DNA of 64,000 nucleotides from Actinomycetota bacterium (GCA_039201605.1 JBCCRO010000021.1:7738-71737); one strand, 5' to 3'. Shown: positions 4,749 to 16,449, counted from the stretch's first letter. Notes: a model not told the origin generated them from the sequence alone. Program-made: numbers and translations.

Positions 4749-5036
4749 CTACTCGTCGTGCTCCATGGTGGCCCACAACCCATGACCGTGGAGCCGGTGG
4801 ACGTCGCGCTCGGCCTCGGTCCGGGTGCCGGAGGAGACGGTGGCGCGGCCCTTGTGGTGGACGTCGAGCATCAACTTGTTGGCCTTGGCCTCGCTGTAGC
4901 CGAACACCTTGCGAAAGACGTACGCCACGTAGGCCATCAGGTTGATCGGGTCGTTCCAGACGATGACCACCCACGGGCGATCCTCTTCCACGACCTCGTC
5001 GAGATCGGGTTCAGCGATCTCGAGGGGAGCGGTCAT
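4749..5036 (-). CDS. clpS: ATP-dependent Clp protease adaptor ClpS
   Basis: [16 protein letters not shown]...MLDVHHKG...GLWAT. Confidence 0.95.
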
Positions 5037-5950
5037 AGGGTCATTTTGGCCAATGACGGCTCGTCATTCACCCCTTCGAGGTCGAATTCCTCGTTCGGGC
5101 GCTGGAAGAGCTGCAGGTGGGTGAGCACCGCCAGGCACCACACCACCATCGAGCCGATCACGTGCAGCCCGACGAGGAGGGGCGGCACGCCGACGGCGAA
5201 CTGCCAGTAGCCGAGCGCCCCCTGGGCCACGATGGCGGCGAGCAGCCACTGCAGGTGGGGCGGGGTTCGGCCGGTGCGGCCGAGGCGGATGGCCAGGGCG
5301 GCGGCGATGGCCAGGAAGCACCACACCATCACCGAGTGGACCCGGGTGATCGCCTCGAGATCGAACTGCAACCGCTCCGCCCGGCTGTCACCGCTGTTGG
5401 GGCCCGTGCCGGTGACCAGCGTGCCGACCACCAGGATCGCCGCTCCCTGGGCGACGAGGGCCCGACCGTGCCAGATCACCGAAGGGGGGAACAGGGGGCG
5501 GGCGACCCCCGGTCCCGCCGAGGCCTTGTCCCACAGGACGGCGGCGTTCCAGAGCGTCACCATCGACAACAGGAAGTGCGAGCCCACCAGGAACGGGTGC
5601 AGGTCGCCGATCACCGTGAACAGTCCGAGGAAGATCTGGGCGACGACGACGGCGGCCAGGCCCCACGCCCACGGCAGCAGATCGTTACGTCGCGGTACCC
5701 GTCGGTAGGCGGTGAGCACGGCGACGGCCACGGCCAGGGCGACCACCCCGGAGAAGGCGCGGTTGCCGAACTCGATCGCGCCGTGGAAGTCCTGCTCGGG
5801 GATGAATCGGTCCTCGGAGCAGCCCGGCCAGTCCTCGCAGCCGAGGCCGGACTGGGTCAGGCGGACGGCGGACCCGGTGACGACGATGGCCGCCAGGGCG
5901 AACCACGCCACCGCCACCGCCCGCCGATAGGTGGTCGGACCGATGCGCAC
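5033..5950 (-). CDS. ctaA: heme A synthase, COX15/CtaA family
   Basis: [27 protein letters not shown] and GTGP motifs; adjacent to ctaB. Confidence 0.9.
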
Positions 5951-6090
5951 CGCATCACGGTACCGGCCCGGCGCGGAGCCCCCGTGATCGAAGCGGGCAG
6001 GTGATGAGGGTGAAAGGTCACGATCCGGTGCCAACGGCCAGTTCGGTTCTGACTGTGCGCTTCAACCCGGATATCGTCTCCCCAGTGGTG

Positions 6091-6990
6091 ATGACCGCGA
6101 CCCCCACTCGGCACCGGGCCATGGCGTTCGTAGCGCTTACCAAACCCCGGATCATCGAGCTGCTTTTGGTGACGACGGTGCCGGTGATGGTCGTCGCCGA
6201 GCAGGGCCTACCCTCGCTGTGGCTGGTCGTGGCCACCGTGATCGGCGGCACCCTCGCCGCCGGCGGGGCCAACGCCTACAACATGTACGTCGACCGCGAC
6301 ATCGACGCCCTGATGAAGCGGACAGAGGGACGTCCGCTGGTGACCGGCGAGGTCACCCCCCGCGAGTCCCTGGTCTTCGCCACCGTGATCGAAGCGGCCG
6401 CGTTCGCCTGGCTCTGGGTGTTCGTCAACCCGCTGTCGGCGGCGCTGGCCCTGGCCGCCACCGCCTTCTACGTGGGCGTCTACACCCTGTGGCTCAAGCG
6501 GACCTCCAGCCAGAACATCGTGATCGGGGGAGCCGCCGGCGCGGTGCCGGTGCTGATCGGCTGGTCGTCGGTGACCAACACCGTCGGCTGGGAGGCCATC
6601 ATCCTGTTCGGCGTCATCTTCTTCTGGACCCCGCCGCACTTCTGGGCGCTGGCCATCAAATACGAGGACGACTACGCCGCCGCCGAGGTGCCGATGATGC
6701 CCGTGGTGGCCGGGCACCGGGACACCGCCCGCCAGATGGTGGCCTACTCGCTCGTCGTCTGGGCCCTGACGCTCGGCCTCTGGTTCGTCGCTCAGGTGGG
6801 CTGGCTGTACCTCGCCGTGGCCATGGTTCTGGGCGCCCTGTTCACCGGTGGCGCCGTGCGTCTGATGGTCGAAACCGACCCCGACGCCCAAGCTCGCCGA
6901 TCGATCAGGTACTTCACCTTCTCGATCACTCACCTGACCGTTTTGTTCTTCGCCTTGGCCGTCGATCAGCTCGTCGGCTGGGGATTATGA
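6091..6990 (+). CDS. ctaB: heme o synthase (protoheme IX farnesyltransferase)
   Basis: LTKPRII, NMYVDRDIDALMKRT, YTLWLKR and FWTPPHFWAL motifs. Confidence 0.95.
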   Translation: MTATPTRHRAMAFVALTKPRIIELLLVTTVPVMVVAEQGLPSLWLVVATVIGGTLAAGGANAYNMYVDRDIDALMKRTEGRPLVTGEVTPRESLVFATVIEAAAFAWLWVFVNPLSAALALAATAFYVGVYTLWLKRTSSQNIVIGGAAGAVPVLIGWSSVTNTVGWEAIILFGVIFFWTPPHFWALAIKYEDDYAAAEVPMMPVVAGHRDTARQMVAYSLVVWALTLGLWFVAQVGWLYLAVAMVLGALFTGGAVRLMVETDPDAQARRSIRYFTFSITHLTVLFFALAVDQLVGWGL

Positions 6991-7127
6991 CAGTTTCGAT
7001 ATCTGCCCGCTTGGCGGGTTACAGTACGCTGCCGCACGGCTAGAAACGTGCTGCGGCGCGCAGTTTCTCTGCCCCAAGCGCCCGCAGGTCTACCCCACCC
7101 CCGCATTCGTCGCGAGGTCAATCGCTC

Positions 7128-8807
7128 ATGGCACTCACAGAAACCCGCCCGGAGACCGATGTGGTCCCAGCCGGTGAGCCGTCGCCTTCGGCCACCCTCG
7201 ACGGGCTGATCGGGTCGTCGGATCACAAGACCATCGGTCGGGCCTGGATCGTGCTCGGTCTGCTGGTGCTGGTGGTGGGCGCCGCCGTCAGCGCCGTGGC
7301 GGGCTTCGAGGCCACCAGCCTCTCCGGCTACACGGTGGTCGACGACGGGGAGATGTTCACCCAGATCTGGTCGATGGGTCGCGAGCTGCTGTTGCTCGGC
7401 GGCATCGTGCCGATCCTGATCGGGCTGGCCACCTATCTCGTACCGCTCCAGATCGGGGCCCCCGCCATCGCCTTCCCCCGCGGTGCCGCGGTGTCGTTCT
7501 GGACCTGGTTCATCGGCGTCGACCTGCTGGTGATCGCCTACGTCCTCAACGGCGGCCCCGGCGGCGGCGTGGAGGACATGGTCGTGTTGTGGGCGCTGTC
7601 GCTCGGCATGATCCTGGCCGGGCTCACCCTGGCCATGGTGATCATCGCCGCCACCATCCTCGGGGCCCGGGCCCAGGGCATGGTCCTGGAGCGGGTGCCG
7701 CAGACCACCTGGTCGTTCCTCGTGTTCAGCCTGATCGGCATCTTCACCCTGCCGATCATCATCGCCGAGCTGGTCATGGTCTACGTGCAGGCCCGCTACG
7801 GCTTCCTTCCCCTCGGCGAGCGCAACAGACTCACCGGGGTTCTCGCCGGCCTCAGCCTCGCCCCCGGCATCTACTGGCCCGCCATCCCGGTGCTCGGCAT
7901 GGCCGTCGACGCCATCGGCGTCCACACCGGTCGGCCGGTCAAAGCCCACCGGCAGGTCATGCTGGCGGTCGGCTTCCTCGGCACGATGGCGTTCGGCATG
8001 GACTTCTTCGCCATGGCCAGCGTCCGGACGATCGATTTCAACCATGAGCTGCTGATCGTCGCCGTCGGGCTGTCGGTCCTGCCGGTGCTCGGTGTCCTGG
8101 GCCTCTCCGGTTCGAGCATCCGGGGCGGCAGGCCGAAGATCAACGCCCCGCTCGCCGGCTCGCTCATCGCCGGGCTCCTGATCCTGCTGGCCACCGCGGT
8201 GTCGCTGCTGGGCCTGCTCGAGCCCATCGCCCTCTTCCTCGCCGACGACCTCGGCCTCAACGTCGATCTCAACGCCGTCCTCGTCCTCAACGGCACCGCC
8301 TTCCACGACGGTGTGCGGGGCCTGGTGCTCGGGGCCGTCGTCGTCGGGCTCATCGCGGGCCTCCATCACTGGTCGACCAAGATCTGGGGCCGTCGGGCCG
8401 CCCAGCCTCTCGGCTTCCTCGCCATCCTGGCCGCTGCCGGCGGCGCCGTGTTCTGGGGCGCCGGTGGTGTGCTCGCCGGCGTCGACGATCAGGCCGCCTA
8501 TCCGGTGTCGGTGCTGACCGGCGGCGGGAACGTGGCCGCCTTCAACACCCTGGCCTGGATCGGCATGCTGCTGCTGCTCGCCGGCACCGTCGTCGGCCTG
8601 CTGTCGGTGGCCGGGCCGATCATCGGTGCCGGTAGCCGTGACGACGATCCCTGGACCGGTGCCACCCTCGAGTGGCTGGCCGGTTCGCCGCCCTCGGTCG
8701 GCAACTTCGACGTCCCACCCGTCGTCACCTCCGCCACCCCGGTGGCCGACCTGGCCGACGAGGAAGCGGACGAAACCGACGCCGAGACCACGGGCGAGGA
8801 GGCCTGA
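7128..8807 (+). CDS. cytochrome c oxidase subunit I-like protein lacking heme/copper ligands
   Basis: Retains DHKTIG, PLQIGAPAIAFPR and DPWTGATLEW..SPP..NF; the ligand-His motifs are substituted. Confidence 0.85.
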   Translation: MALTETRPETDVVPAGEPSPSATLDGLIGSSDHKTIGRAWIVLGLLVLVVGAAVSAVAGFEATSLSGYTVVDDGEMFTQIWSMGRELLLLGGIVPILIGLATYLVPLQIGAPAIAFPRGAAVSFWTWFIGVDLLVIAYVLNGGPGGGVEDMVVLWALSLGMILAGLTLAMVIIAATILGARAQGMVLERVPQTTWSFLVFSLIGIFTLPIIIAELVMVYVQARYGFLPLGERNRLTGVLAGLSLAPGIYWPAIPVLGMAVDAIGVHTGRPVKAHRQVMLAVGFLGTMAFGMDFFAMASVRTIDFNHELLIVAVGLSVLPVLGVLGLSGSSIRGGRPKINAPLAGSLIAGLLILLATAVSLLGLLEPIALFLADDLGLNVDLNAVLVLNGTAFHDGVRGLVLGAVVVGLIAGLHHWSTKIWGRRAAQPLGFLAILAAAGGAVFWGAGGVLAGVDDQAAYPVSVLTGGGNVAAFNTLAWIGMLLLLAGTVVGLLSVAGPIIGAGSRDDDPWTGATLEWLAGSPPSVGNFDVPPVVTSATPVADLADEEADETDAETTGEEA

Positions 8808-9418
8808 TGTCCGACATCACCGTCTACGACCCGGTACCGCTCGACGTCGCCGCCCCCAAGGCGGTCCGGCCCCGCCTGCTGCTCCTGGCCACCGGCCTGG
8901 CCTGCTCTGCGGTGGTCATGGGCTACTCGGGCCTCCTCGGCTACTACATCGCCGCCCGCCAGGCCGTCGTCCAGACCGGCGAGGTGTGGCTGCCCGACGG
9001 GGTCGTGATCCCGCTGACCCAGCCCAACTTCATGGCCCTCACGCTGGTGTTCTCGGTGGTGTCGATGCTGTGGGCCCTCTCGGCCGTGCGCAGCGAGGAC
9101 AAGGCCAACGCCTACATCGCTTTCACCCTCACCTTGGTCTTCGGTTTCTCCCAGATCGTCCAGACCTTCTACCTTCTGACCATTATGGAGATGCCGGCCG
9201 CCGAGTCGATGGTCGCCGTGCTCATCTTCTCTCTCGTTGGCATCCAGGTCGCTCTCACCGGCGCCGGGATGGGCTTCGTCGTGGTTGCCATGCTTCGCAC
9301 CCTCGGCGGGGGCTACTCGGCCCGTGACTACGAGGGCGTCCTGGCCGCCACCGTGTTCTGGATCATGACCGTCGGCGTGTACCTGGCCCTCTGGTACACC
9401 GTCTACATCACGAAGTAG
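8807..9418 (+). CDS. divergent cytochrome c oxidase subunit III-like membrane protein
   Basis: About 5 TM helices with subunit III-like TLVFGFSQIVQ and FWIMTVGVYLALWYTVYI; translationally coupled to the upstream gene. Confidence 0.75.
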   Translation: MSDITVYDPVPLDVAAPKAVRPRLLLLATGLACSAVVMGYSGLLGYYIAARQAVVQTGEVWLPDGVVIPLTQPNFMALTLVFSVVSMLWALSAVRSEDKANAYIAFTLTLVFGFSQIVQTFYLLTIMEMPAAESMVAVLIFSLVGIQVALTGAGMGFVVVAMLRTLGGGYSARDYEGVLAATVFWIMTVGVYLALWYTVYITK

Positions 9419-9425
9419 GGAAGAC

Positions 9426-10220
9426 ATGTTCACCTGGGCTTCCAAGTACCTCTTCTCCCTCGCCGGTGTCTCGATGCTGAGCGCCGCGCTGTACGGCCTC
9501 ATCAGCGGCGGTGGCGCCATTGGCGTCGTCAGCGCCGGCTACAAGGGCGGCGTCGGCGACCACGTCGGCTACACGGTGCTCCTGGCCCTCGGTCTCGTCA
9601 CCCTGTCGCTCGGCATCCTGAGCGTGATCATCCGCGACGGCGACGCCGAGACCGCCACCGAGCTGGTCGGGGTCGAGGGGGCGCTGTCGCTCGGCACGCC
9701 CCGCAAGCCCAGCTTCTGGGCCCCCCTCGCCGCCTTCGGTGTGGCCTGCCTCGCCGTCGGCCTGGCCGTCAGCTCGGTCTTCGCCATCCTCGGCGTCGTC
9801 ATCCTGGCCGTCGTGCTGCTCCAGTGGACGGTGCTGGCCTGGTCCGAGCGGGCCACCGGCGATGACGAGGTCAACGCCACCATCCGCAGCCGGACCATCG
9901 GGCCCCTCGAGGTACCGATGATGGCGATGCTCGGCATCGCCGTTCTGGTCATCGGCATCTCCCGGGTCCTGCTGGCCGTGTCGAAGGAGGGGGCCACGGC
10001 GGTCGCCTCCGTCGTCGCCCTGGCCGTCTTCATCGCCGCCATCGCCATCGCCAAGGCCCGGGCCCCCCGTTCCATCATCACCGGCGTCGTCGCCGTCGGC
10101 GCCCTCGCCGTACTCACCGGCGGCATCGTCGGAGCCGTTGTCGGCGAAAGAGAGATCGTCCATCACTCGGAGCATGGCGACGAGTCGCACAGCGAGGATG
10201 GCGAAGGAGAAAGCGAGTGA
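9426..10220 (+). CDS. membrane protein with CtaF (actinobacterial subunit IV)-like N-terminal half
   Basis: AALYG...VGYTVLLALG...PSFWAPL pattern resembles CtaF; extra TM helices and a His/acidic tail follow. Confidence 0.6.
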   Translation: MFTWASKYLFSLAGVSMLSAALYGLISGGGAIGVVSAGYKGGVGDHVGYTVLLALGLVTLSLGILSVIIRDGDAETATELVGVEGALSLGTPRKPSFWAPLAAFGVACLAVGLAVSSVFAILGVVILAVVLLQWTVLAWSERATGDDEVNATIRSRTIGPLEVPMMAMLGIAVLVIGISRVLLAVSKEGATAVASVVALAVFIAAIAIAKARAPRSIITGVVAVGALAVLTGGIVGAVVGEREIVHHSEHGDESHSEDGEGESE

Positions 10221-11557
10221 GAGTTCCGTTGCCCAAGTCCGTGGCTCGCTGGACGGCGCTGGCCGCTCTGGCCCTGACCGCCGCCGCCTGCGCCGACGAC
10301 AAGCCGCTCAACACCTTTGAGCCCGCCGGACCCGCCGCCGATCGCATCGACGGCTTCATGTTCTACATCTGGCCGATCATGGGCATCATCTTCGTGCTCG
10401 TCATCGGCGGCGGGATCTGGATCTCCGTCAAGAACCGGGTGAAGCCCGAGGACTACGACCCCGAGGACCTGCCGCCGCAGACGCACGGCAACACCCGCCT
10501 CGAGGTGGCCTGGACCATCCTCCCCGCCGTTCTTCTGGCCGGGATCAGCGTGCCCATGGTGGCCCAGATCTGGGATCTCGAGGAGCGCAACGACGCCTGC
10601 GAGCCGGGCGAGGTCGGCGAGGGTTGCGACGGTCTCGACATCATGGTCATCGGTCAGCAGTGGTGGTGGGAGTACCGCTACGACGCCGACGGCGACGGTT
10701 TCTTCCAGGACGCCAACGGCGACGGTGTCGTCGACGGTCGCGACCAGGAGCTCCCGCTCGAGATCGCCCTCGATCCCGACGACGTGGTGACCGCCACCGA
10801 GCTGGTGATCCCGGCCGATCAGCAGATCGACCTGCTGCTCACCTCGCGGGACGTGATCCACTCGTACTGGATCCCCCGCCTCAACGGTAAGCGTGACACC
10901 GTGCCCGGCCGTCTCCACACCTGGTCGGTCGAGGCCTTCGAGCCCGGCAAGTACACCGGCTGGTGCACCGAGTACTGCGGTCTGTCCCACGCTCGCATGC
11001 GGATGTCGACCATCGCCCTCCCCCAGGACGAGTTCGACGCCTGGCTCGACAACCAGAAGCAGTTGGCCGAGGTCCCCGAGGTCGGCACCGACGCCTACGA
11101 GGGGCGTGAGCTCTTCGCCCAGCAGTGCGCCAGCTGCCACGTGATCAACGACAACTCGGCCGACTTCGACCCCGGGGACGATGTGGCCTTCACGATCTTC
11201 GACTACGGGGAGAACTTCGAGGCCGCCCTCACCTCCAAGGCGGCGCCGAATCTCACGCACTTCGCCACCCGGTCGAGTTTCGCCGGCGGCATCTTCGGCG
11301 TCTATCTTGGACCGGGAACCGACCCCAACGACGACGCCCTCGATGTGTCGCAGTATCTGACTTTGGCCGAGCAGGCGTCGGCGGCGGACAGCCGTGATGA
11401 CTTCCGGGTGAACTCGGCCCAACTGAAGCGTTGGATCGCCAACGCTCCGTCGCAGAAGGCCATGGACCCAGATGACGGTCGAGGTATGACGGCCTTCCCG
11501 CAGCTCACCGACGAACAACTCGACAACCTCGTCGCCTACCTGGCGACGTTGGACTGA
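10217..11557 (+). CDS. ctaC: cytochrome c oxidase subunit II with fused cytochrome c (caa3 type), lipoprotein
   Basis: Lipobox TAAAC, LEVAWT, QQWWWEY, DVIHS, CuA motif CTEYCGLSHARM and heme motif CASCH. Confidence 0.95.
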   Translation: MRVPLPKSVARWTALAALALTAAACADDKPLNTFEPAGPAADRIDGFMFYIWPIMGIIFVLVIGGGIWISVKNRVKPEDYDPEDLPPQTHGNTRLEVAWTILPAVLLAGISVPMVAQIWDLEERNDACEPGEVGEGCDGLDIMVIGQQWWWEYRYDADGDGFFQDANGDGVVDGRDQELPLEIALDPDDVVTATELVIPADQQIDLLLTSRDVIHSYWIPRLNGKRDTVPGRLHTWSVEAFEPGKYTGWCTEYCGLSHARMRMSTIALPQDEFDAWLDNQKQLAEVPEVGTDAYEGRELFAQQCASCHVINDNSADFDPGDDVAFTIFDYGENFEAALTSKAAPNLTHFATRSSFAGGIFGVYLGPGTDPNDDALDVSQYLTLAEQASAADSRDDFRVNSAQLKRWIANAPSQKAMDPDDGRGMTAFPQLTDEQLDNLVAYLATLD

Positions 11558-11574
11558 CCAGGAGCACGTAGCTG

Positions 11575-13575
11575 ATGGCGATTACGGAAGAACCTCTCGC
11601 TCTTCCCGCCGGCGATTCCGGCCCCGCAGAGAAGCCGCTCGGCGTCTTCACCCGACCCCGGGAGGCGACCGGCCTGGTCAACTGGATGACCACGGTCGAT
11701 CACAAGAAGATCGGCATCATGTACGGCGCCGCGTCGATGTTCTTCCTGCTCATCGGAGGCCTGGCCGCAATCCTGATCCGCATCCAGCTGGCCACGCCGA
11801 ACAGCACCTTCCTGTCGGCCGACGCCTACAACCGGATCTTCACCATGCACGGCACGGTGATGGTGTTCCTGGTGGTGATGCCCCTCGGTGCGGCGTTCGC
11901 CAACTACATGATGCCCATCCAGGTGGGCGCCCGTGATGTGGCCTTCCCCCGGATCAACGCCTTCAGCTTCTGGGTGTTCTTCCTGGGCGGCCTCATGCTC
12001 AACACCAGCTGGTTCCTCGGCGGCGGCGCCAACGGCGGCTGGTTCAACTACGCCCCCAACAACGGCATCGCCTACTCCCCGTCGACCGGTATCGACTTCT
12101 GGAATGTGGGCCTGCTGATCGTCGGTTTCGGCTCGCTCACCGGTTCGATCAACCTGATCACCACCGTCCTCAACCTGCGGGCCCCCGGCATGTCGCTGAT
12201 GAAGATGCCGGTCTTCGTCTGGATGACCCTGGTCACCCAGTTCCTGCTGCTGTTCGCCATCCCGGTGCTCACCGTGGCCCAGCTGCTACTGCTCTTCGAT
12301 CGCCTCTTCGAGGCCAACTTCTTCAACGTGGCTCAGGGCGCCGACCCGCTGCTCTGGCAGCACCTGTTCTGGATCTTCGGACACCCCGAGGTGTACCTGA
12401 TGATCCTGCCCGCCTTCGGCATCGTCTCGGAGGTCATCCCGACCTTCGCCCGCAAGCCGATCTTCGGCTACCCGTTCATGGTCTTCTCCGGCATCGCCAT
12501 CGGCTTCATGGGCTGGGGCGTGTGGGCCCACCACATGTTCGTCTCGGGCATCGGCCCGCTGTCGGTCACGGCCTTCTCGGTGGCGACGATGTTCATCGCC
12601 GTGCCGACCGGTGTGAAGATCCTCAACTGGCTGGCCACGATGTGGGGCGGCAAGTTGATCCTCAACACGGCGATGTTGTTCGCCATCGGTCTGGTCACCC
12701 AGTTCACCATCGGCGGTCTGTCGGGCGTGTCGCACGCCATCGCCCCGTCCGACACCCAGCAGACCGACACCTACTACATCGTCGCCCACTTCCACTACGT
12801 GCTCTTCGGTGGCGCCCTCTTCGGCTTCATCTCGGGCCTGTACTTCTGGTGGCCCAAGGTCTTCGGCTACAAGATGAACGAGAAGGTCGGCAAGTGGAAC
12901 TTCTGGGCCATGGTGGTCGGCTTCAACCTCACCTTCGGCCCGATGCACATCCTCGGCCTCCAGGGCATGCCCCGCCGCATGCAGACCTACGACAGCGCCA
13001 TGGGCTTCACCCTGTGGAACTTCGTGGCCACCATCGGTTCGCTCATCCTCGCCGTCGGCACCCTGATGACGCTCTACAACGCCTTCTACTCCTACTTCCA
13101 GTGGAAGGCCGTCGGTAAGCCTGACGTCGGCCCCGACCCGTGGGACGGCAGGACGCTCGAGTGGTCGGTCCAGTCGCCCACCCCGGAGCACAACTTCGAC
13201 GTGAGCCCGACCGTCACCTCGCTCGACGACTTCTGGCACCGCAAGTACGTGGAGGACGACGACGGCGCCATACGCCGGGTCGCCACCGGTGACGAATTGG
13301 CCCAGCCCGGCAACGGCGAGGGCGTGCACCTCCCGGCGCCGTCGTACTGGCCGATCGTGCTCTCGGCGGCCCTGCCGATCGTGGGCTACGGCCTGATCTA
13401 CAACCTGTGGCTGACGGTCCCCGGCGGCCTGCTGGTGATCGCCGCCCTGTTCGGTTGGGCGCTGGAGCCGGCCGACGATCTCGATCTCGACGACGGGCAC
13501 GGGCACGGCCACGGCGGTGACCACGACGATCCCGACGGCGGCGGTAACGCCGACGATCTTCTGGAGATGGTCTAG
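11575..13575 (+). CDS. ctaD: cytochrome c oxidase subunit I (A1 type)
   Basis: FTMHG, GHPEVY, WAHHMF, AHFHY and GMPRR are all intact. Confidence 0.97.
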   Translation: MAITEEPLALPAGDSGPAEKPLGVFTRPREATGLVNWMTTVDHKKIGIMYGAASMFFLLIGGLAAILIRIQLATPNSTFLSADAYNRIFTMHGTVMVFLVVMPLGAAFANYMMPIQVGARDVAFPRINAFSFWVFFLGGLMLNTSWFLGGGANGGWFNYAPNNGIAYSPSTGIDFWNVGLLIVGFGSLTGSINLITTVLNLRAPGMSLMKMPVFVWMTLVTQFLLLFAIPVLTVAQLLLLFDRLFEANFFNVAQGADPLLWQHLFWIFGHPEVYLMILPAFGIVSEVIPTFARKPIFGYPFMVFSGIAIGFMGWGVWAHHMFVSGIGPLSVTAFSVATMFIAVPTGVKILNWLATMWGGKLILNTAMLFAIGLVTQFTIGGLSGVSHAIAPSDTQQTDTYYIVAHFHYVLFGGALFGFISGLYFWWPKVFGYKMNEKVGKWNFWAMVVGFNLTFGPMHILGLQGMPRRMQTYDSAMGFTLWNFVATIGSLILAVGTLMTLYNAFYSYFQWKAVGKPDVGPDPWDGRTLEWSVQSPTPEHNFDVSPTVTSLDDFWHRKYVEDDDGAIRRVATGDELAQPGNGEGVHLPAPSYWPIVLSAALPIVGYGLIYNLWLTVPGGLLVIAALFGWALEPADDLDLDDGHGHGHGGDHDDPDGGGNADDLLEMV

Positions 13576-14300
13576 TGAGCGACGTAGCGATACCCGTCGA
13601 GAAGGGCCCGGTAGGGGCCCACGACATCCGCCCCGGCGAGAGCGCCCACGACGGCGGTCACGAGGAGCATCACGCCAGCCTCGGCCTGTCCAACATGAAG
13701 CTGGCCATGTGGCTGTTCCTCGGGTCGGAGTGCCTGCTGTTCGGCGCCCTGATCTCGACGTACCTGCTGTCGAAGGCCAACTTCATCACCGAGCTCCTCG
13801 CTGGCAATCCCGACGTCATCGAAACGCTGCCCCCCGAGATAGCGGCCGAGTTCATCGCCGCCGGTTCGGTGGAGCCGATCTACGACATCCCCTTCACCTC
13901 GGCCAGCTCCTTCATCCTGTTGATGAGCTCGCTCACGATGGTGCTGGCCCACAAGTCCACCCACGAGGGCGACATCCGCAATCAGCGGGTGTGGCTGGCG
14001 GCCACCGCCGTGCTCGGGTCGACCTTCATCGCCGGCCAGGTCTACGAGTTCACCGTGTTCTTCCGTGAGGGCATCACCTACAACGGCAACCTCTTCGGTT
14101 CCGCCTTCTACACCCTCACCGGCTTCCACGGCGTGCACGTCACCGGCGGCATCCTGATGCTGGTCGCGCTGTTGATCATGTCGTTCCGGGGCAAGCTGCA
14201 GAGGGACCGGGCCGAGACCGTCGAGCTCGTCGGTCTGTACTGGCACTTCGTCGACATCGTGTGGGTGCTCATCTTCACGATCGTCTACCTGATTCCGTAG
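13575..14300 (+). CDS. ctaE: cytochrome c oxidase subunit III
   Basis: MWLFLGSECLLFG, FYTLTGFHGVHV and GLYWHFVDIVW. Confidence 0.95.
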   Translation: MSDVAIPVEKGPVGAHDIRPGESAHDGGHEEHHASLGLSNMKLAMWLFLGSECLLFGALISTYLLSKANFITELLAGNPDVIETLPPEIAAEFIAAGSVEPIYDIPFTSASSFILLMSSLTMVLAHKSTHEGDIRNQRVWLAATAVLGSTFIAGQVYEFTVFFREGITYNGNLFGSAFYTLTGFHGVHVTGGILMLVALLIMSFRGKLQRDRAETVELVGLYWHFVDIVWVLIFTIVYLIP

Positions 14301-14311
14301 AGGTTGATGTC

Positions 14312-14644
14312 ATGAGCGAAACCGCCACCGCCACCCACGACGATCATCACGACGAGGCCCACCCGACCGAGGGCCAGTACTGGGTCGTCTTCGTCGCCCT
14401 CGCCGTGCTCACCGCGGTCGAGGTGCTCTGGTACTTCCTCCCGTTCGAGGGCCTGTTCGAGGTCCTCCCGCTCCTCATCATGATGGTGGCGAAGTTCTTC
14501 CTCGTCGGTGGCTTCTTCATGCACCTCTACTTCGACATGAAGATGATCAACGGCCGCCTGTTCACCTGGGCGTTCGCCGGCGGCATCCTGCTGGCGATGG
14601 CCGTGTACTTCATCGTCTTCGCCACGTTCGAATTCTCATTCTGA
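14312..14644 (+). CDS. cytochrome c oxidase subunit IV family (COX4_pro-like)
   Basis: 3 TM helices with LTAVEV and KFFLVGGFFMHL. Confidence 0.85.
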   Translation: MSETATATHDDHHDEAHPTEGQYWVVFVALAVLTAVEVLWYFLPFEGLFEVLPLLIMMVAKFFLVGGFFMHLYFDMKMINGRLFTWAFAGGILLAMAVYFIVFATFEFSF

Positions 14645-14741
14645 CCCGCCCGGCCCCCCAGGGGCGGCGCGGATCTGAAACCGGCTGAAACCGGCCCGCC
14701 GGGTCGGACATCGAGGCCCCGAACACGCTTCACTGGGAACC

Positions 14742-15680
14742 ATGGAACTGACGCTCTCCGATATCGGCTGGCAGGCCCACCCCGAGGTGTGGACGCTGGT
14801 GATCGGCATCGTGGCGTTGGGCTTCTACGTCCATCGAGTGGTTCAGCCCAAGGCGGTGGCCGCCGGGTTCGAGCCCGTCACCAGGACCCAGCAGTTGTGG
14901 TTCACCCTGGCCCTCCTGGGGCTGTGGGGCGCCTCCGACTGGCCGGTGCACGACGTGGCCGAGGAATACCTGTACTTCGTGCACATGGCGCAGCACCTGT
15001 TCATCTCGATGATCGTGCCGATGCTGTTCCTGCTGGCCATGCCCTCGTGGTTGTTCCGACTGGTCTTCCCCAAGGACGGCGGCGCCTACAACTTCCTCCG
15101 TCGGGCCTCGCGCCCGATCGTGGCGGGCCTGGTGTTCAACGGGCTCACCCTGCTGCTCCACTGGTCGAAGCTGGTGCAGCTGTCGTTCGAGAGCGGCCCG
15201 TTCCACTTCTTCCTCCACCTCCTGGTGTTCGGCGCCGGCCTCCTGATGTGGATGCCGATCGTCGGGCCCGAGCAGGAGTGGCGCCTGTCGCCGATCGGTC
15301 AGTGCATTTTCCTGTTCATGATGTCGATCGTGCCCACGGTGCCCGGTGGGTGGCTCGTGTTCGCCGAGGATGTCGTCTACCGCCACTACGACACCGTCGA
15401 CCGCCTGTGGGGCGTGAGCGCCCTCACCGACCAGCAGGCCGCCGGGGTGATCATGAAGCTGGCCGGTGGGTTCTTCCTGTGGGCCATCATCGTGGTGATC
15501 TTCGCCCGGTGGGCGATGAGCGAGGCCGAGGCCGACCGCGAGGCCCGTCGAGCCCGCCGCATCGATCTCGACGCGGTAGCCCGCTCGGCCGAGGCGGCCT
15601 CCGGCGCCGACGAGCTGACCTACGACGACGTGACCGACGAATTCGCCCGCACCGAGGCTCCAGCCGAGCCATCGAGATGA
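14742..15680 (+). CDS. ctaG: cytochrome c oxidase assembly protein, caa3 CtaG family
   Basis: HMAQHL, LHW and DQQAAGVIMK motifs. Confidence 0.88.
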   Translation: MELTLSDIGWQAHPEVWTLVIGIVALGFYVHRVVQPKAVAAGFEPVTRTQQLWFTLALLGLWGASDWPVHDVAEEYLYFVHMAQHLFISMIVPMLFLLAMPSWLFRLVFPKDGGAYNFLRRASRPIVAGLVFNGLTLLLHWSKLVQLSFESGPFHFFLHLLVFGAGLLMWMPIVGPEQEWRLSPIGQCIFLFMMSIVPTVPGGWLVFAEDVVYRHYDTVDRLWGVSALTDQQAAGVIMKLAGGFFLWAIIVVIFARWAMSEAEADREARRARRIDLDAVARSAEAASGADELTYDDVTDEFARTEAPAEPSR

Positions 15681-15793
15681 TCGTTCGCCGGTACCCCGTG
15701 CTCGGCCCCGAGCCGTCGAGATGATCGTTCGCCGGTACCCCGTGCTGTCGAGATGATCGTTCGCCGGTACCCCGTGCTCGGCCCCGAGCCGTC
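15665..15793. repeat. tandem direct repeat, three copies of a 31-bp core
   Basis: TCGAGATGATCGTTCGCCGGTACCCCGTGCT at 15672, 15716 and 15748. Confidence 0.95.
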
Positions 15794-15810
15794 CCGGTAG
15801 GGGAGAGGCC

Positions 15811-16449
15811 ATGGATCTGGCCCGGATGCGCCAGGAGTACGAGGCGACCGGCATCGTCGACGCCGACTTCGGGCCCGACCCCCTGGTACACGTGCAGGAG
15901 TGGTTGCAGGCCTCGGTCGACGCCGGCCTCCACGAGCCGAACGCCATGGTGGTGGCGACCGTCGACGACGACGGCCAGCCCTGGAGCCGCTACGTCCTCC
16001 TCAAGCAGGTCGGGCCCGACGGCTTCGACTTCTACACCAACTACGAGAGCAACAAGTCGACGCAGCTCACCACCAACCCCCGAGCCTCACTCAGCTTCGG
16101 TTGGCTCGAGCTGCACCGGCAGCTGATGGTGGCCGGCACCGTCGGCCGGGTGCCGGTGGACGAGAGCGACCACTACTGGTCGGTGCGGCCCCGGGGCTCC
16201 CAGCTCGGCGGGTGGGCCTCCGATCAGAGCCGCCCGCTTACCGACGGCCGCAGGCAGCTCGACGCCGCCTACCGAGACGCCGACGAGCGCTTTGGCGACC
16301 GGGTGCCTCGCCCCGACCACTGGGGCGGATGGCGGGTGGTGCCCCACACGATCGAGTTCTGGCAGGGACGGGAGAACCGCCTCCACGATCGCCTTCGCTA
16401 CCACCGCGACGCTGCCGGAAGTTGGTCGCGGGCCCGCCTCGCTCCCTGA
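15811..16449 (+). CDS. pdxH: pyridoxamine 5'-phosphate oxidase
   Basis: FYTNYESNK, RPRGSQLGGWASDQS and EFWQGRENRLHDR. Confidence 0.95.
   Translation: MDLARMRQEYEATGIVDADFGPDPLVHVQEWLQASVDAGLHEPNAMVVATVDDDGQPWSRYVLLKQVGPDGFDFYTNYESNKSTQLTTNPRASLSFGWLELHRQLMVAGTVGRVPVDESDHYWSVRPRGSQLGGWASDQSRPLTDGRRQLDAAYRDADERFGDRVPRPDHWGGWRVVPHTIEFWQGRENRLHDRLRYHRDAAGSWSRARLAP

Follow-up and report, generated by a model that had tools for sequence, protein, structure and literature searches.

A selected set of three oxidase-subunit paralogues, probably free of cofactors, beside the intact caa3 oxidase of Acidimicrobiia

In cytochrome bd oxidase, a cofactor-bearing subunit is paired with CydB, a cofactor-poor structural paralogue, and the pairing is known from solved structures. 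Two other described systems are closer to the locus reported here. In Acetobacter, every cofactor-binding residue is said to be missing from a COX1-like protein encoded beside ctaB, for which a structural function has been put forward (PMC10715153, citing Matsutani et al. 2014). In Mycobacterium smegmatis, CtaE and CtaF together constitute subunit III and contact complex III (PMC8361435). Here we describe three adjoining genes, psD, psE and tm264, in a stretch of 64,000 nucleotides from an Actinomycetota bacterium (GCA_039201605.1, JBCCRO010000021.1:7738-71737; this whole stretch is called the window, and positions are counted from its first letter). The genes stand directly before ctaC in a cluster for a cytochrome caa3 oxidase, and a preliminary description had read them as a maintained pseudo-enzyme module: cofactor-less paralogues of subunits I and III, followed by a CtaF-like protein. 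A ligand-less COX1-like gene beside ctaB is already known from Acetobacter (PMC10715153); the set described here comprises three paralogues under selection beside an intact oxidase and is conserved throughout an order.

The trio lies on the plus strand between ctaB and ctaC, and its three open reading frames are found where they had first been placed: psD (7128-8807, 559 amino acids), a subunit I paralogue without heme or copper ligands; psE (8807-9418, 203 amino acids, five helices), a subunit III paralogue; and tm264 (9426-10220, 264 amino acids, seven predicted helices). The psD stop and the psE start overlap by one base (TGATG, the psE start being the overlapping ATG), seven bases separate psE from tm264, and the tm264 stop overlaps the GTG start of ctaC in the sequence GTGA, as had been stated from the outset. 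The three genes are translationally coupled to one another and to ctaC. Their description as the head of the caa3 operon stands in so far as they directly precede ctaC, but not in the strict sense, ctaB lying 137 bases upstream on the same strand. That neighbour is shared with the Acetobacter gene, as is the loss of all cofactor ligands. The comparison, which is by description, also reveals differences: the Acetobacter gene is described as a remnant in bacteria whose cytochrome c oxidase has been replaced, whereas psD stands beside a complete ctaC-D-E-F-G set with all its ligands and has its own subunit III and CtaF-like partners, order-wide conservation and a record of purifying selection (PMC10715153).

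Sequence and predicted fold both assign psD to the family of the catalytic subunit. Over its entire length it can be aligned with the window's true CtaD (11575-13575; 24% identity, E-value 2e-30), and it passes the Pfam COX1 model (PF00115; E-value 5e-25, 88.7 bits against a cut-off of 34.8), which bears out its initial identification as a lengthwise CtaD paralogue. Every NCBIfam cut-off for subunit I lies far above its scores: psD covers positions 4-504 of the 504 of TIGR02891 (CtaD_CoxA) at 119.9 bits against a cut-off of 670.75, and reaches 99.8 bits on NF050116 (cyt_aa3_Actin) against 880. Its AlphaFold2 model (mean predicted local distance difference test score, pLDDT, 86.3; predicted template modelling score 0.90) has its best structural matches among the CtaD chains of mycobacterial and corynebacterial supercomplexes, with template modelling scores of 0.79-0.82 and Foldseek E-values of 6e-20 to 2e-18. 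With the CtaD of actinobacterial aa3 oxidases (PDB 9gy6_F, 7q21_D and 6adq_F) psD shares the 12-helix fold, full-length sequence homology, and the N-terminal DHK, loop II-III and C-terminal PW..TLEW..PP..NF motifs. It differs from them by a shortened loop between helices III and IV, by an insertion before helix IX and by the absence of the six His, of the D-channel Asp and Glu and of the Arg pair.

This absence extends to every metal-ligand motif. FTMHG of CtaD is replaced by WSMGR and GHPEVY by LAPGIY, AHFHY stands opposite GVRGL, and WAHHMF is aligned either to a gap or to FGMDFF. Pairwise and multiple alignments agree that psD of the window has no His at the six ligand columns, and they uphold the initial claim that all these motifs and the MPRR arginines are lost: at the columns of the D-channel Asp and Glu and of the heme-propionate Arg pair (MPRR) psD has Ala, Gly, Ala and Tyr. 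The K-pathway residues are gone, like those of the D-pathway. Total His content is 7 in psD against 17 in CtaD, and the conserved His of psD (H33, H266 and H414) are all outside ligand positions. Sequence and 12-helix fold place psD in the COX1 superfamily, without the defining features of a functional subunit I. Having lost the propionate arginines and the carboxylates of the D-channel along with all ligands of CuB, heme a and heme a3, psD can neither reduce oxygen nor pump protons by the known mechanism.

Other positions have become characteristic of psD. There are 46 invariant columns among 28 diverse psD sequences, and family-specific polar residues, invariant or at least 90% conserved, occur in or near the helices (for instance R85, D150, D261, H266, R397, H414, K418 and R422). 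The near-invariant R85 (7380-7382) and R397 (8316-8318) stand at or beside two former heme a His, in helices II and X, a placement that depends on the alignment and is good to one or two residues only. The N-terminus MALTETRPE (residues 1-9, 7128-7154) is unusually conserved, with M1 invariant and T4 and R7 at 90% or above; the true CtaD of the same loci begins MAI(I/V)E..PLALP.

The loss of ligands is a property of the family rather than of one genome. A word-indexed search with psD returned 285 homologues at E-values up to 1e-5; identity ranges from 46 to 100% among the 120 of these matches that were listed, and source labels, where named, read Acidimicrobiia, Acidimicrobiales or Actinomycetota. 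An exhaustive search of representatives at 50% identity gave 163 clusters at E-values up to 1e-30. When 251 homologues of at least 450 amino acids were aligned with true CtaD, 207 had no His at the ligand columns and 44 had one to four, so that an alignment of COX1 sequences, the check proposed for the ligand loss, recovers none in the window's psD or in these 207. The commonest partial patterns are the helix II His alone (12 rows) and the pair of His from helices II and X alone (10 rows), and further rows combine this pair with another ligand His. These two His are the axial ligands of the low-spin heme. Among psD rows derived from the loci surveyed below, 70 of 75 are devoid of any ligand His; the exceptions are L049, L076 and L078, early-branching and syntenic, with both low-spin heme His, and L052 and L080, with one. 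In the first three (L049:9001-10581, L076:7359-8990 and L078:6956-8611) the gene occupies the same operon slot and keeps the axial low-spin pair, with no CuB or high-spin heme ligand; from their sequences, these psD may be one-heme intermediates.

In public databases, psD homologues bear names such as "cbb3-type cytochrome c oxidase subunit I" or "cytochrome c oxidase subunit 1". Such labels may lead metabolic reconstructions of Acidimicrobiia from soil, sea, sponges or sludge to count a non-existent oxidase, even a high-affinity one. No description of the module in Acidimicrobiia was found in the full-text literature, a search whose coverage excluded subscription journals and supplements.

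A scan of one genome per species located 79 psD loci, all in records titled Acidimicrobiia, Acidimicrobiales, Microthrixaceae, Poriferisodalis, Aquihabitans or unclassified Actinomycetota, taxon labels being those of the public records. Two of them (L061 and L080) come from cultured Aquihabitans strains; carriers are thus available in culture, in which an unusual oxidase or supercomplex architecture might emerge. Where the sequence continues for at least 3 kb downstream of psD, which is the case at 68 loci, psD, psE, tm264 and ctaC always follow one another in this order on a single strand (68 of 68), and wherever the contig is long enough ctaA and ctaB are found upstream of the trio and ctaD, ctaE and subunit IV downstream. 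Synteny across Acidimicrobiia, which had been proposed as a check, therefore speaks for the trio: relatives have it, in the same order and with unbroken frames, as in the window, where the reading frame had been described as intact. All 71 related CtaC that bear the CuA motif also contain CxxCH.

Within a sample of 151 genomes of the class, the psD profile matches all 36 genomes of the window's order, 32 of them at E-values up to 1e-53, stronger than the same profile on the window's true CtaD (4.9e-48); other orders mostly give scores at the level of CtaD only, the assignment being judged by score. In a phylum-wide sample of 301 genomes, 58 have a match at E-values up to 1e-45, a tally that includes six unpublished genomes. 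Outside the class, inspection covered the 12 best published loci, all of which are true CtaD, with phmmer scores of 519-565 bits to CtaD against 84-114 to psD; a further 32 of the matching genomes also lie outside the order. Five psD matches in related genomes include one internal TGA (G122:C1:2181164-2182792, G058:C16:19918-21480, G038:C137:81417-82979, G070:C10:46147-47784 and G059:C70:3040-4701), which may mean that the match simply extends beyond the psD stop into the psE frame that overlaps it, or may stem from a frameshift or from faulty sequence.

Selection acts on all three genes. The ratio of non-synonymous to synonymous substitution rates (dN/dS) of psD is 0.07-0.21 in 13 of 14 close pairs and 0.48 in the other, where dS is low for all genes; in the same 14 pairs it is 0.03-0.27 for psE, 0.07-0.39 for tm264, 0.04-0.53 for ctaC and 0.02-0.21 for ctaD. 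With values far below 1 and no neutral decay, psD, psE and tm264 are, by this measure, under purifying selection. In a phylogenetic tree psD is monophyletic with a long stem, and the branching within it follows that of the CtaD encoded at the same loci; pairwise distances in the two families are correlated (r 0.87; 378 pairs from 28 loci), psD evolving about 2.2 times faster. Since a single long branch parts psD from all CtaD, the tree cannot tell which oxidase lineage was duplicated. The proportion of differing sites between psD and its own CtaD is smallest in L076 and L049 (0.69-0.71), against 0.78 in the window. As the early-branching L049, L076 and L078 retain the low-spin His, the sequences suggest that the core was duplicated and then lost its cofactors step by step, the catalytic centre first and the remaining heme later. 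The term 'maintained pseudo-enzyme module' is well chosen in view of family-wide ligand loss, strict synteny, purifying selection and the inheritance of psD together with CtaD. Here is a clear natural case in which selection has preserved a duplicated respiratory catalytic core after the loss of all its cofactors, and the surviving intermediates with low-spin heme ligands make it testable how much the scaffold matters apart from its chemistry.

The second gene of the trio is more divergent, as had been noted. As a single sequence psE scores just below the Pfam COX3 cut-off (PF00510; E-value 1.3e-4, 22.4 bits against 23.8), and on NF050119, the five-helix CtaE model, it aligns over positions 4-189 of 190 at 19.6 bits against a cut-off of 190. 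Profile comparisons give stronger matches: the psE family profile matches COX3 chains of the PDB at an E-value of 8e-18 and, end to end, the 203-205-residue CtaE of Corynebacterium glutamicum and mycobacteria (7q21_E and 6adq_G) at about 1e-13, and hhalign pairs psE with the window's own CtaE at a probability of 94% (E-value 1e-7). On these profiles, the identification of psE as a subunit III homologue is solid. The His of both FHGVHV and YWHFVD are missing, in agreement with the initial description; psE of L049 and L076 retains FWHF.

The third gene is composed of two unlike halves, and its labelling as CtaF-like is supported, weakly, for the first only. The N-terminal half (residues 1-141, 9426-9848) has four helices. 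PF12270 (Cyt_c_ox_IV) does not match tm264 of the window at E-values up to 1, yet it is the model that most often matches the family (5 of 28 members, best E-value 0.0046), and an early-branching homologue reaches 1.8e-5 (25.3 bits against a cut-off of 26.9). With hhalign, this half matches a CtaF-like C-terminal extension of the true CtaD at an E-value of 1.8e-4 (probability 48%); the tm264 profile matches CtaF in the PDB at 0.068-0.076 (Mycobacterium tuberculosis CtaF, 8hcr_H, at 0.076); and the third feature match of tm264 is an Atlas cluster auto-named "cytochrome c oxidase polypeptide IV". A Foldseek search with the predicted structure (seven helices, pLDDT 68.7) gave no match at E-values of 0.001 or below, CtaF chains taking ranks 1, 2 and 4 without significance. 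The first four helices thus appear weakly CtaF-like at the sequence level, the curated CtaF cut-off never being reached.

The C-terminal half is a different three-helix module (about residues 147-240, 9864-10145) with a tail rich in His, Asp and Glu (10152-10220). Its helices match, at E-values of 2e-12 to 8e-9, the N-terminal anchor of cupredoxin-bearing proteins encoded beside the cta operons in Acidimicrobiia orders that have no psD, and a reciprocal search of the window's genome with this anchor returned the tm264 stretch at 2.3e-4. The cupredoxin of the anchor proteins is replaced in tm264 by the short tail, which contains at least two His in 59 of 68 scorable sequences and has a median Asp plus Glu fraction of 0.40. 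In three early-branching homologues, longer at 344-395 amino acids (L071:11250-12281, L077:11235-12374 and L079:5154-6338), the anchor is followed not by the His-rich tail but by an additional domain of about 130 residues at the C-terminus, for which no significant match was found (hhalign E-values of 0.065 to cupredoxin and 0.04 to the cupredoxin domain of CtaC; Cupredoxin_1 at 0.19 in one of the three).

With psE a subunit III homologue and the N-terminal half of tm264 CtaF-like, the trio, read from sequence, mirrors subunit I and the split subunit III of an oxidase core, with no second subunit II. Relative to the actinobacterial CtaE and CtaF (PMC8361435), psE is alike from end to end and tm264 weakly so in its four helices; both depart from them, psE by lacking the His of FHG.H and YWHF and tm264 by its three extra helices and its His- and acid-rich tail. 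We co-folded psD (residues 25-545), psE (15-203) and tm264 (1-245) alongside three controls. The score of tm264 against psD and psE was 0.66, compared with 0.01 for the best control; 58 of 80 solved complexes and 2 of 110 mismatched pairs attain this mark. Co-folding runs share at least 78% of contacts, with a partner pLDDT of at least 57. All confident contacts of tm264 fall within residues 3-139, the CtaF-like half, which touches the first helix of psE and helices III-IV and VI-VII of psD. In the model, and there only, tm264 packs with psE beside psD as CtaF does with CtaE beside subunit I.

On this basis we propose that psD, psE and tm264 assemble into one redox-dead I'-III' subcomplex, in which the predicted packing places the CtaF-like half of tm264 on psE and psD. 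As its members are translated from the stretch of message that also yields CtaC, the subcomplex would be produced in concert with the single caa3 oxidase. In the genome as a whole (6.0 Mb in 95 contigs) there are two COX1 matches, the true ctaD and psD, of which only one can be an enzyme, so that it has a single true heme-copper oxidase. The subcomplex would sit beside this oxidase, or between it and its electron donor, and serve as a structural element or adaptor without catalysis of its own. The anchor of tm264, with its three helices free, and the tail would project to the outer membrane face, an orientation that follows from homology with the cupredoxin-bearing anchors, and would be open to another contact. 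CydB offers an analogy from an unrelated superfamily: psD may be likened to it as a cofactor-poor partner paralogue, the pairing being hypothetical here. We consider it very probable that the trio is a cofactor-free, maintained and self-assembling module. Its putative role as a structural partner of the oxidase is a more tentative matter. The explanation as a whole, namely a redox-dead subcomplex of subunit I and split subunit III, made with the caa3 oxidase and putatively serving it as structural or adaptor partner, has in our estimate a probability of about 0.5. The preliminary description had listed half of an asymmetric dimer, an adaptor, a scaffold and a channel as conceivable roles; its reading of the genes as a module is retained, and to it are added the model of a single subcomplex and the cupredoxin-bearing anchors of sister lineages.

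Several observations weigh against the proposed partnership. Solved actinobacterial oxidases contain the homologous CtaD-CtaE-CtaF trio, and the co-folding score may therefore reflect likeness to the mycobacterial complexes, which is no proof of binding. Conserved residues are no more frequent at the predicted interface than elsewhere (6 of 42, against 81 of 479; Fisher p 0.83). In sister orders, caa3 operons of the same kind run without psD and psE in all eight loci inspected, so that the module is not needed for this oxidase type as such. Finally, no QcrC scores above cut-off in the genome, a weak match sitting in an unrelated neighbourhood, and complex III is of the split cytochrome b6/subunit IV type, for which reason the mycobacterial docking of complexes III and IV is not simply transferable. 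The type of complex III argues neither for nor against a supercomplex. Its locus (L116, G000:C28:55000-70000, positions 6245-10752) encodes a 4Fe-4S ferredoxin-like protein, a cytochrome b6-like protein, a subunit IV-like protein, a Rieske protein and a 505-residue cytochrome c protein; it adjoins nuoA and nuoB and is not of the actinobacterial QcrCAB type.

The strongest alternative is a biogenesis platform, that is, an apo-like mimic of subunits I and III that is used during assembly and stays outside the finished enzyme. It might stabilise CtaB or CtaA, present CtaC for the loading of CuA, or handle copper at the outer membrane face through the His-rich tail of tm264. The position of the trio between ctaB and ctaC, in a cluster that also includes ctaA and ctaG, fits this idea, as do the His of the tm264 tails, and a CtaB-stabilising role has been proposed for the ligand-less Acetobacter gene (PMC10715153, citing Matsutani et al. 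2014). However, psD of the window, without axial His, cannot hold heme in the usual way, ctaB has no COX1-like neighbour in any of five psD-less relatives inspected, lineages that still have caa3 operons, and three large membrane proteins coupled to ctaC would resemble stoichiometric subunits more than catalytic assembly factors. A platform of this kind seems to us unlikely.

The fold could also have been reused for an independent membrane function merely co-regulated with respiration, such as conducting ions or protons, transport or sensing. The new conserved polar residues in and near the psD helices, R85 and R397 at or beside the former heme a ligand positions among them (subject to the alignment), are what such a function might look like. 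Yet the canonical D- and K-pathway residues are lost, no transporter family of Pfam or NCBIfam matched psD, psE or tm264, and the strict slot in the cta operon, the stop/start overlap into ctaC and the co-divergence of psD with CtaD all tie the trio to the oxidase, which makes this reading decidedly improbable. That psD is a residual redox protein, binding a cofactor through non-canonical ligands and joining in electron transfer, is suggested by the axial low-spin pair of L049, L076 and L078, which also occurs alone in 10 of 251 rows and with other ligand His in more; the lack of any ligand-column His in the window's psD and in 207 of 251 homologues, together with conserved His that all lie elsewhere, leaves it a very slim chance. 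Decay of a functionless duplicate, for which one could invoke the roughly 2.2-fold faster evolution of psD, is excluded for the trio by the selection and synteny results (intact frames and identical gene order in 68 of 68 loci, dN/dS far below 1 for all three genes, and the 46 invariant columns), and we regard its probability as negligible.

The proposed structural module can be set against the sister orders, where the eight psD-less loci have the order ctaC-ctaD-ctaE-subunit IV-ctaG without psD or psE. The heme c motif is present in seven of seven CtaC with a CuA motif from these loci, and four of five scanned anchor proteins in these orders end in a plastocyanin-type cupredoxin. Membrane proteins with the tm264-type anchor are encoded just after ctaG in L100 (5159-5944, minus strand), L101 (12142-13806, plus strand), L104 (13427-14647, plus strand) and L107 (5739-6491, minus strand), three of the four ending in such a cupredoxin; as judged from sequence, the caa3 oxidase may receive electrons from these membrane-anchored proteins.

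A second case, a subunit I-like domain poor in His, occurs in a psD-less order. P0269 (L106:11593-13737, minus strand) is an open frame of 715 residues directly upstream of ctaC, built from a CcoN-like domain with only two His, a three-helix anchor of the tm264 type and a cupredoxin with a complete His-Cys-His-Met site, a build common to nine clusters of 709-716 amino acids. Its CcoN-like domain matches Pfam COX1 at an E-value of 2.4e-27 and TIGR00780 at 2e-26, far below the cut-off of the latter. Like the trio, P0269 places a heme-copper-oxidase-like domain upstream of ctaC together with the anchor found in the C-terminal half of tm264. Unlike psD, it originates from the cbb3 (CcoN) branch and carries an intact cupredoxin, and its match to the psD profile is not significant (hhalign E-value 0.055).

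A bolder reading of these two cases would be that Acidimicrobiia turned dead oxidase catalytic subunits into membrane docking platforms at least twice: once as an A-family shadow complex, an asymmetric caa3 partner that presents the tm264 arm to the CuA/cytochrome c side, and in another order as an unrelated, CcoN-derived dead subunit I, encoded directly upstream of ctaC and fused to the same anchor and to an intact blue-copper domain. The anchor and His-rich tail of tm264 would then be a former electron-carrier or copper-handling arm. We regard this reading as rather doubtful; if true, selection would have arrived more than once at a redox-dead heme-copper oxidase scaffold as a means of bringing electrons or copper to the right place at a terminal oxidase.

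The remainder of the cluster is that of a Bacillus-like cytochrome caa3, extending over positions 5000-15700 on the plus strand except for ctaA. This gene for heme A synthase (5033-6034, minus strand; Pfam COX15-CtaA E-value 3.2e-23) is divergent from ctaB, for heme O synthase (6001-6990; UbiA, 1.6e-67); in related loci, too, ctaA is upstream and ctaB directly 5' of psD. Downstream of the trio, ctaC (10217-11557) encodes subunit II with a fused cytochrome c domain, hence of caa3 type (COX2, 1.2e-20; Cytochrom_C, 4.6e-10), and ctaD (11575-13575) the true subunit I of 666 amino acids with all six His (COX1, 1.5e-154; 685 bits on TIGR02891, above the cut-off). They are followed by ctaE for the true subunit III (13575-14300; COX3, 4.7e-22), by a Bacillus-type subunit IV (14261-14644; COX4_pro, 4e-8) and by ctaG for the assembly factor (14742-15680; Caa3_CtaG, 4.2e-41). 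A scan of 5900-16000 for promoters and terminators remained at chance level, with 1 promoter-like site where 0.8 would be expected and 5 terminator-like sites where 3.3 would be. The C-terminal two-helix extension of the true CtaD (residues 579-631; 13309-13467) resembles the second half of actinobacterial CtaF (PF12270, E-value 7.3e-7); the active enzyme would thus hold a fused piece of the split subunit III in addition to its Bacillus-type subunit IV.

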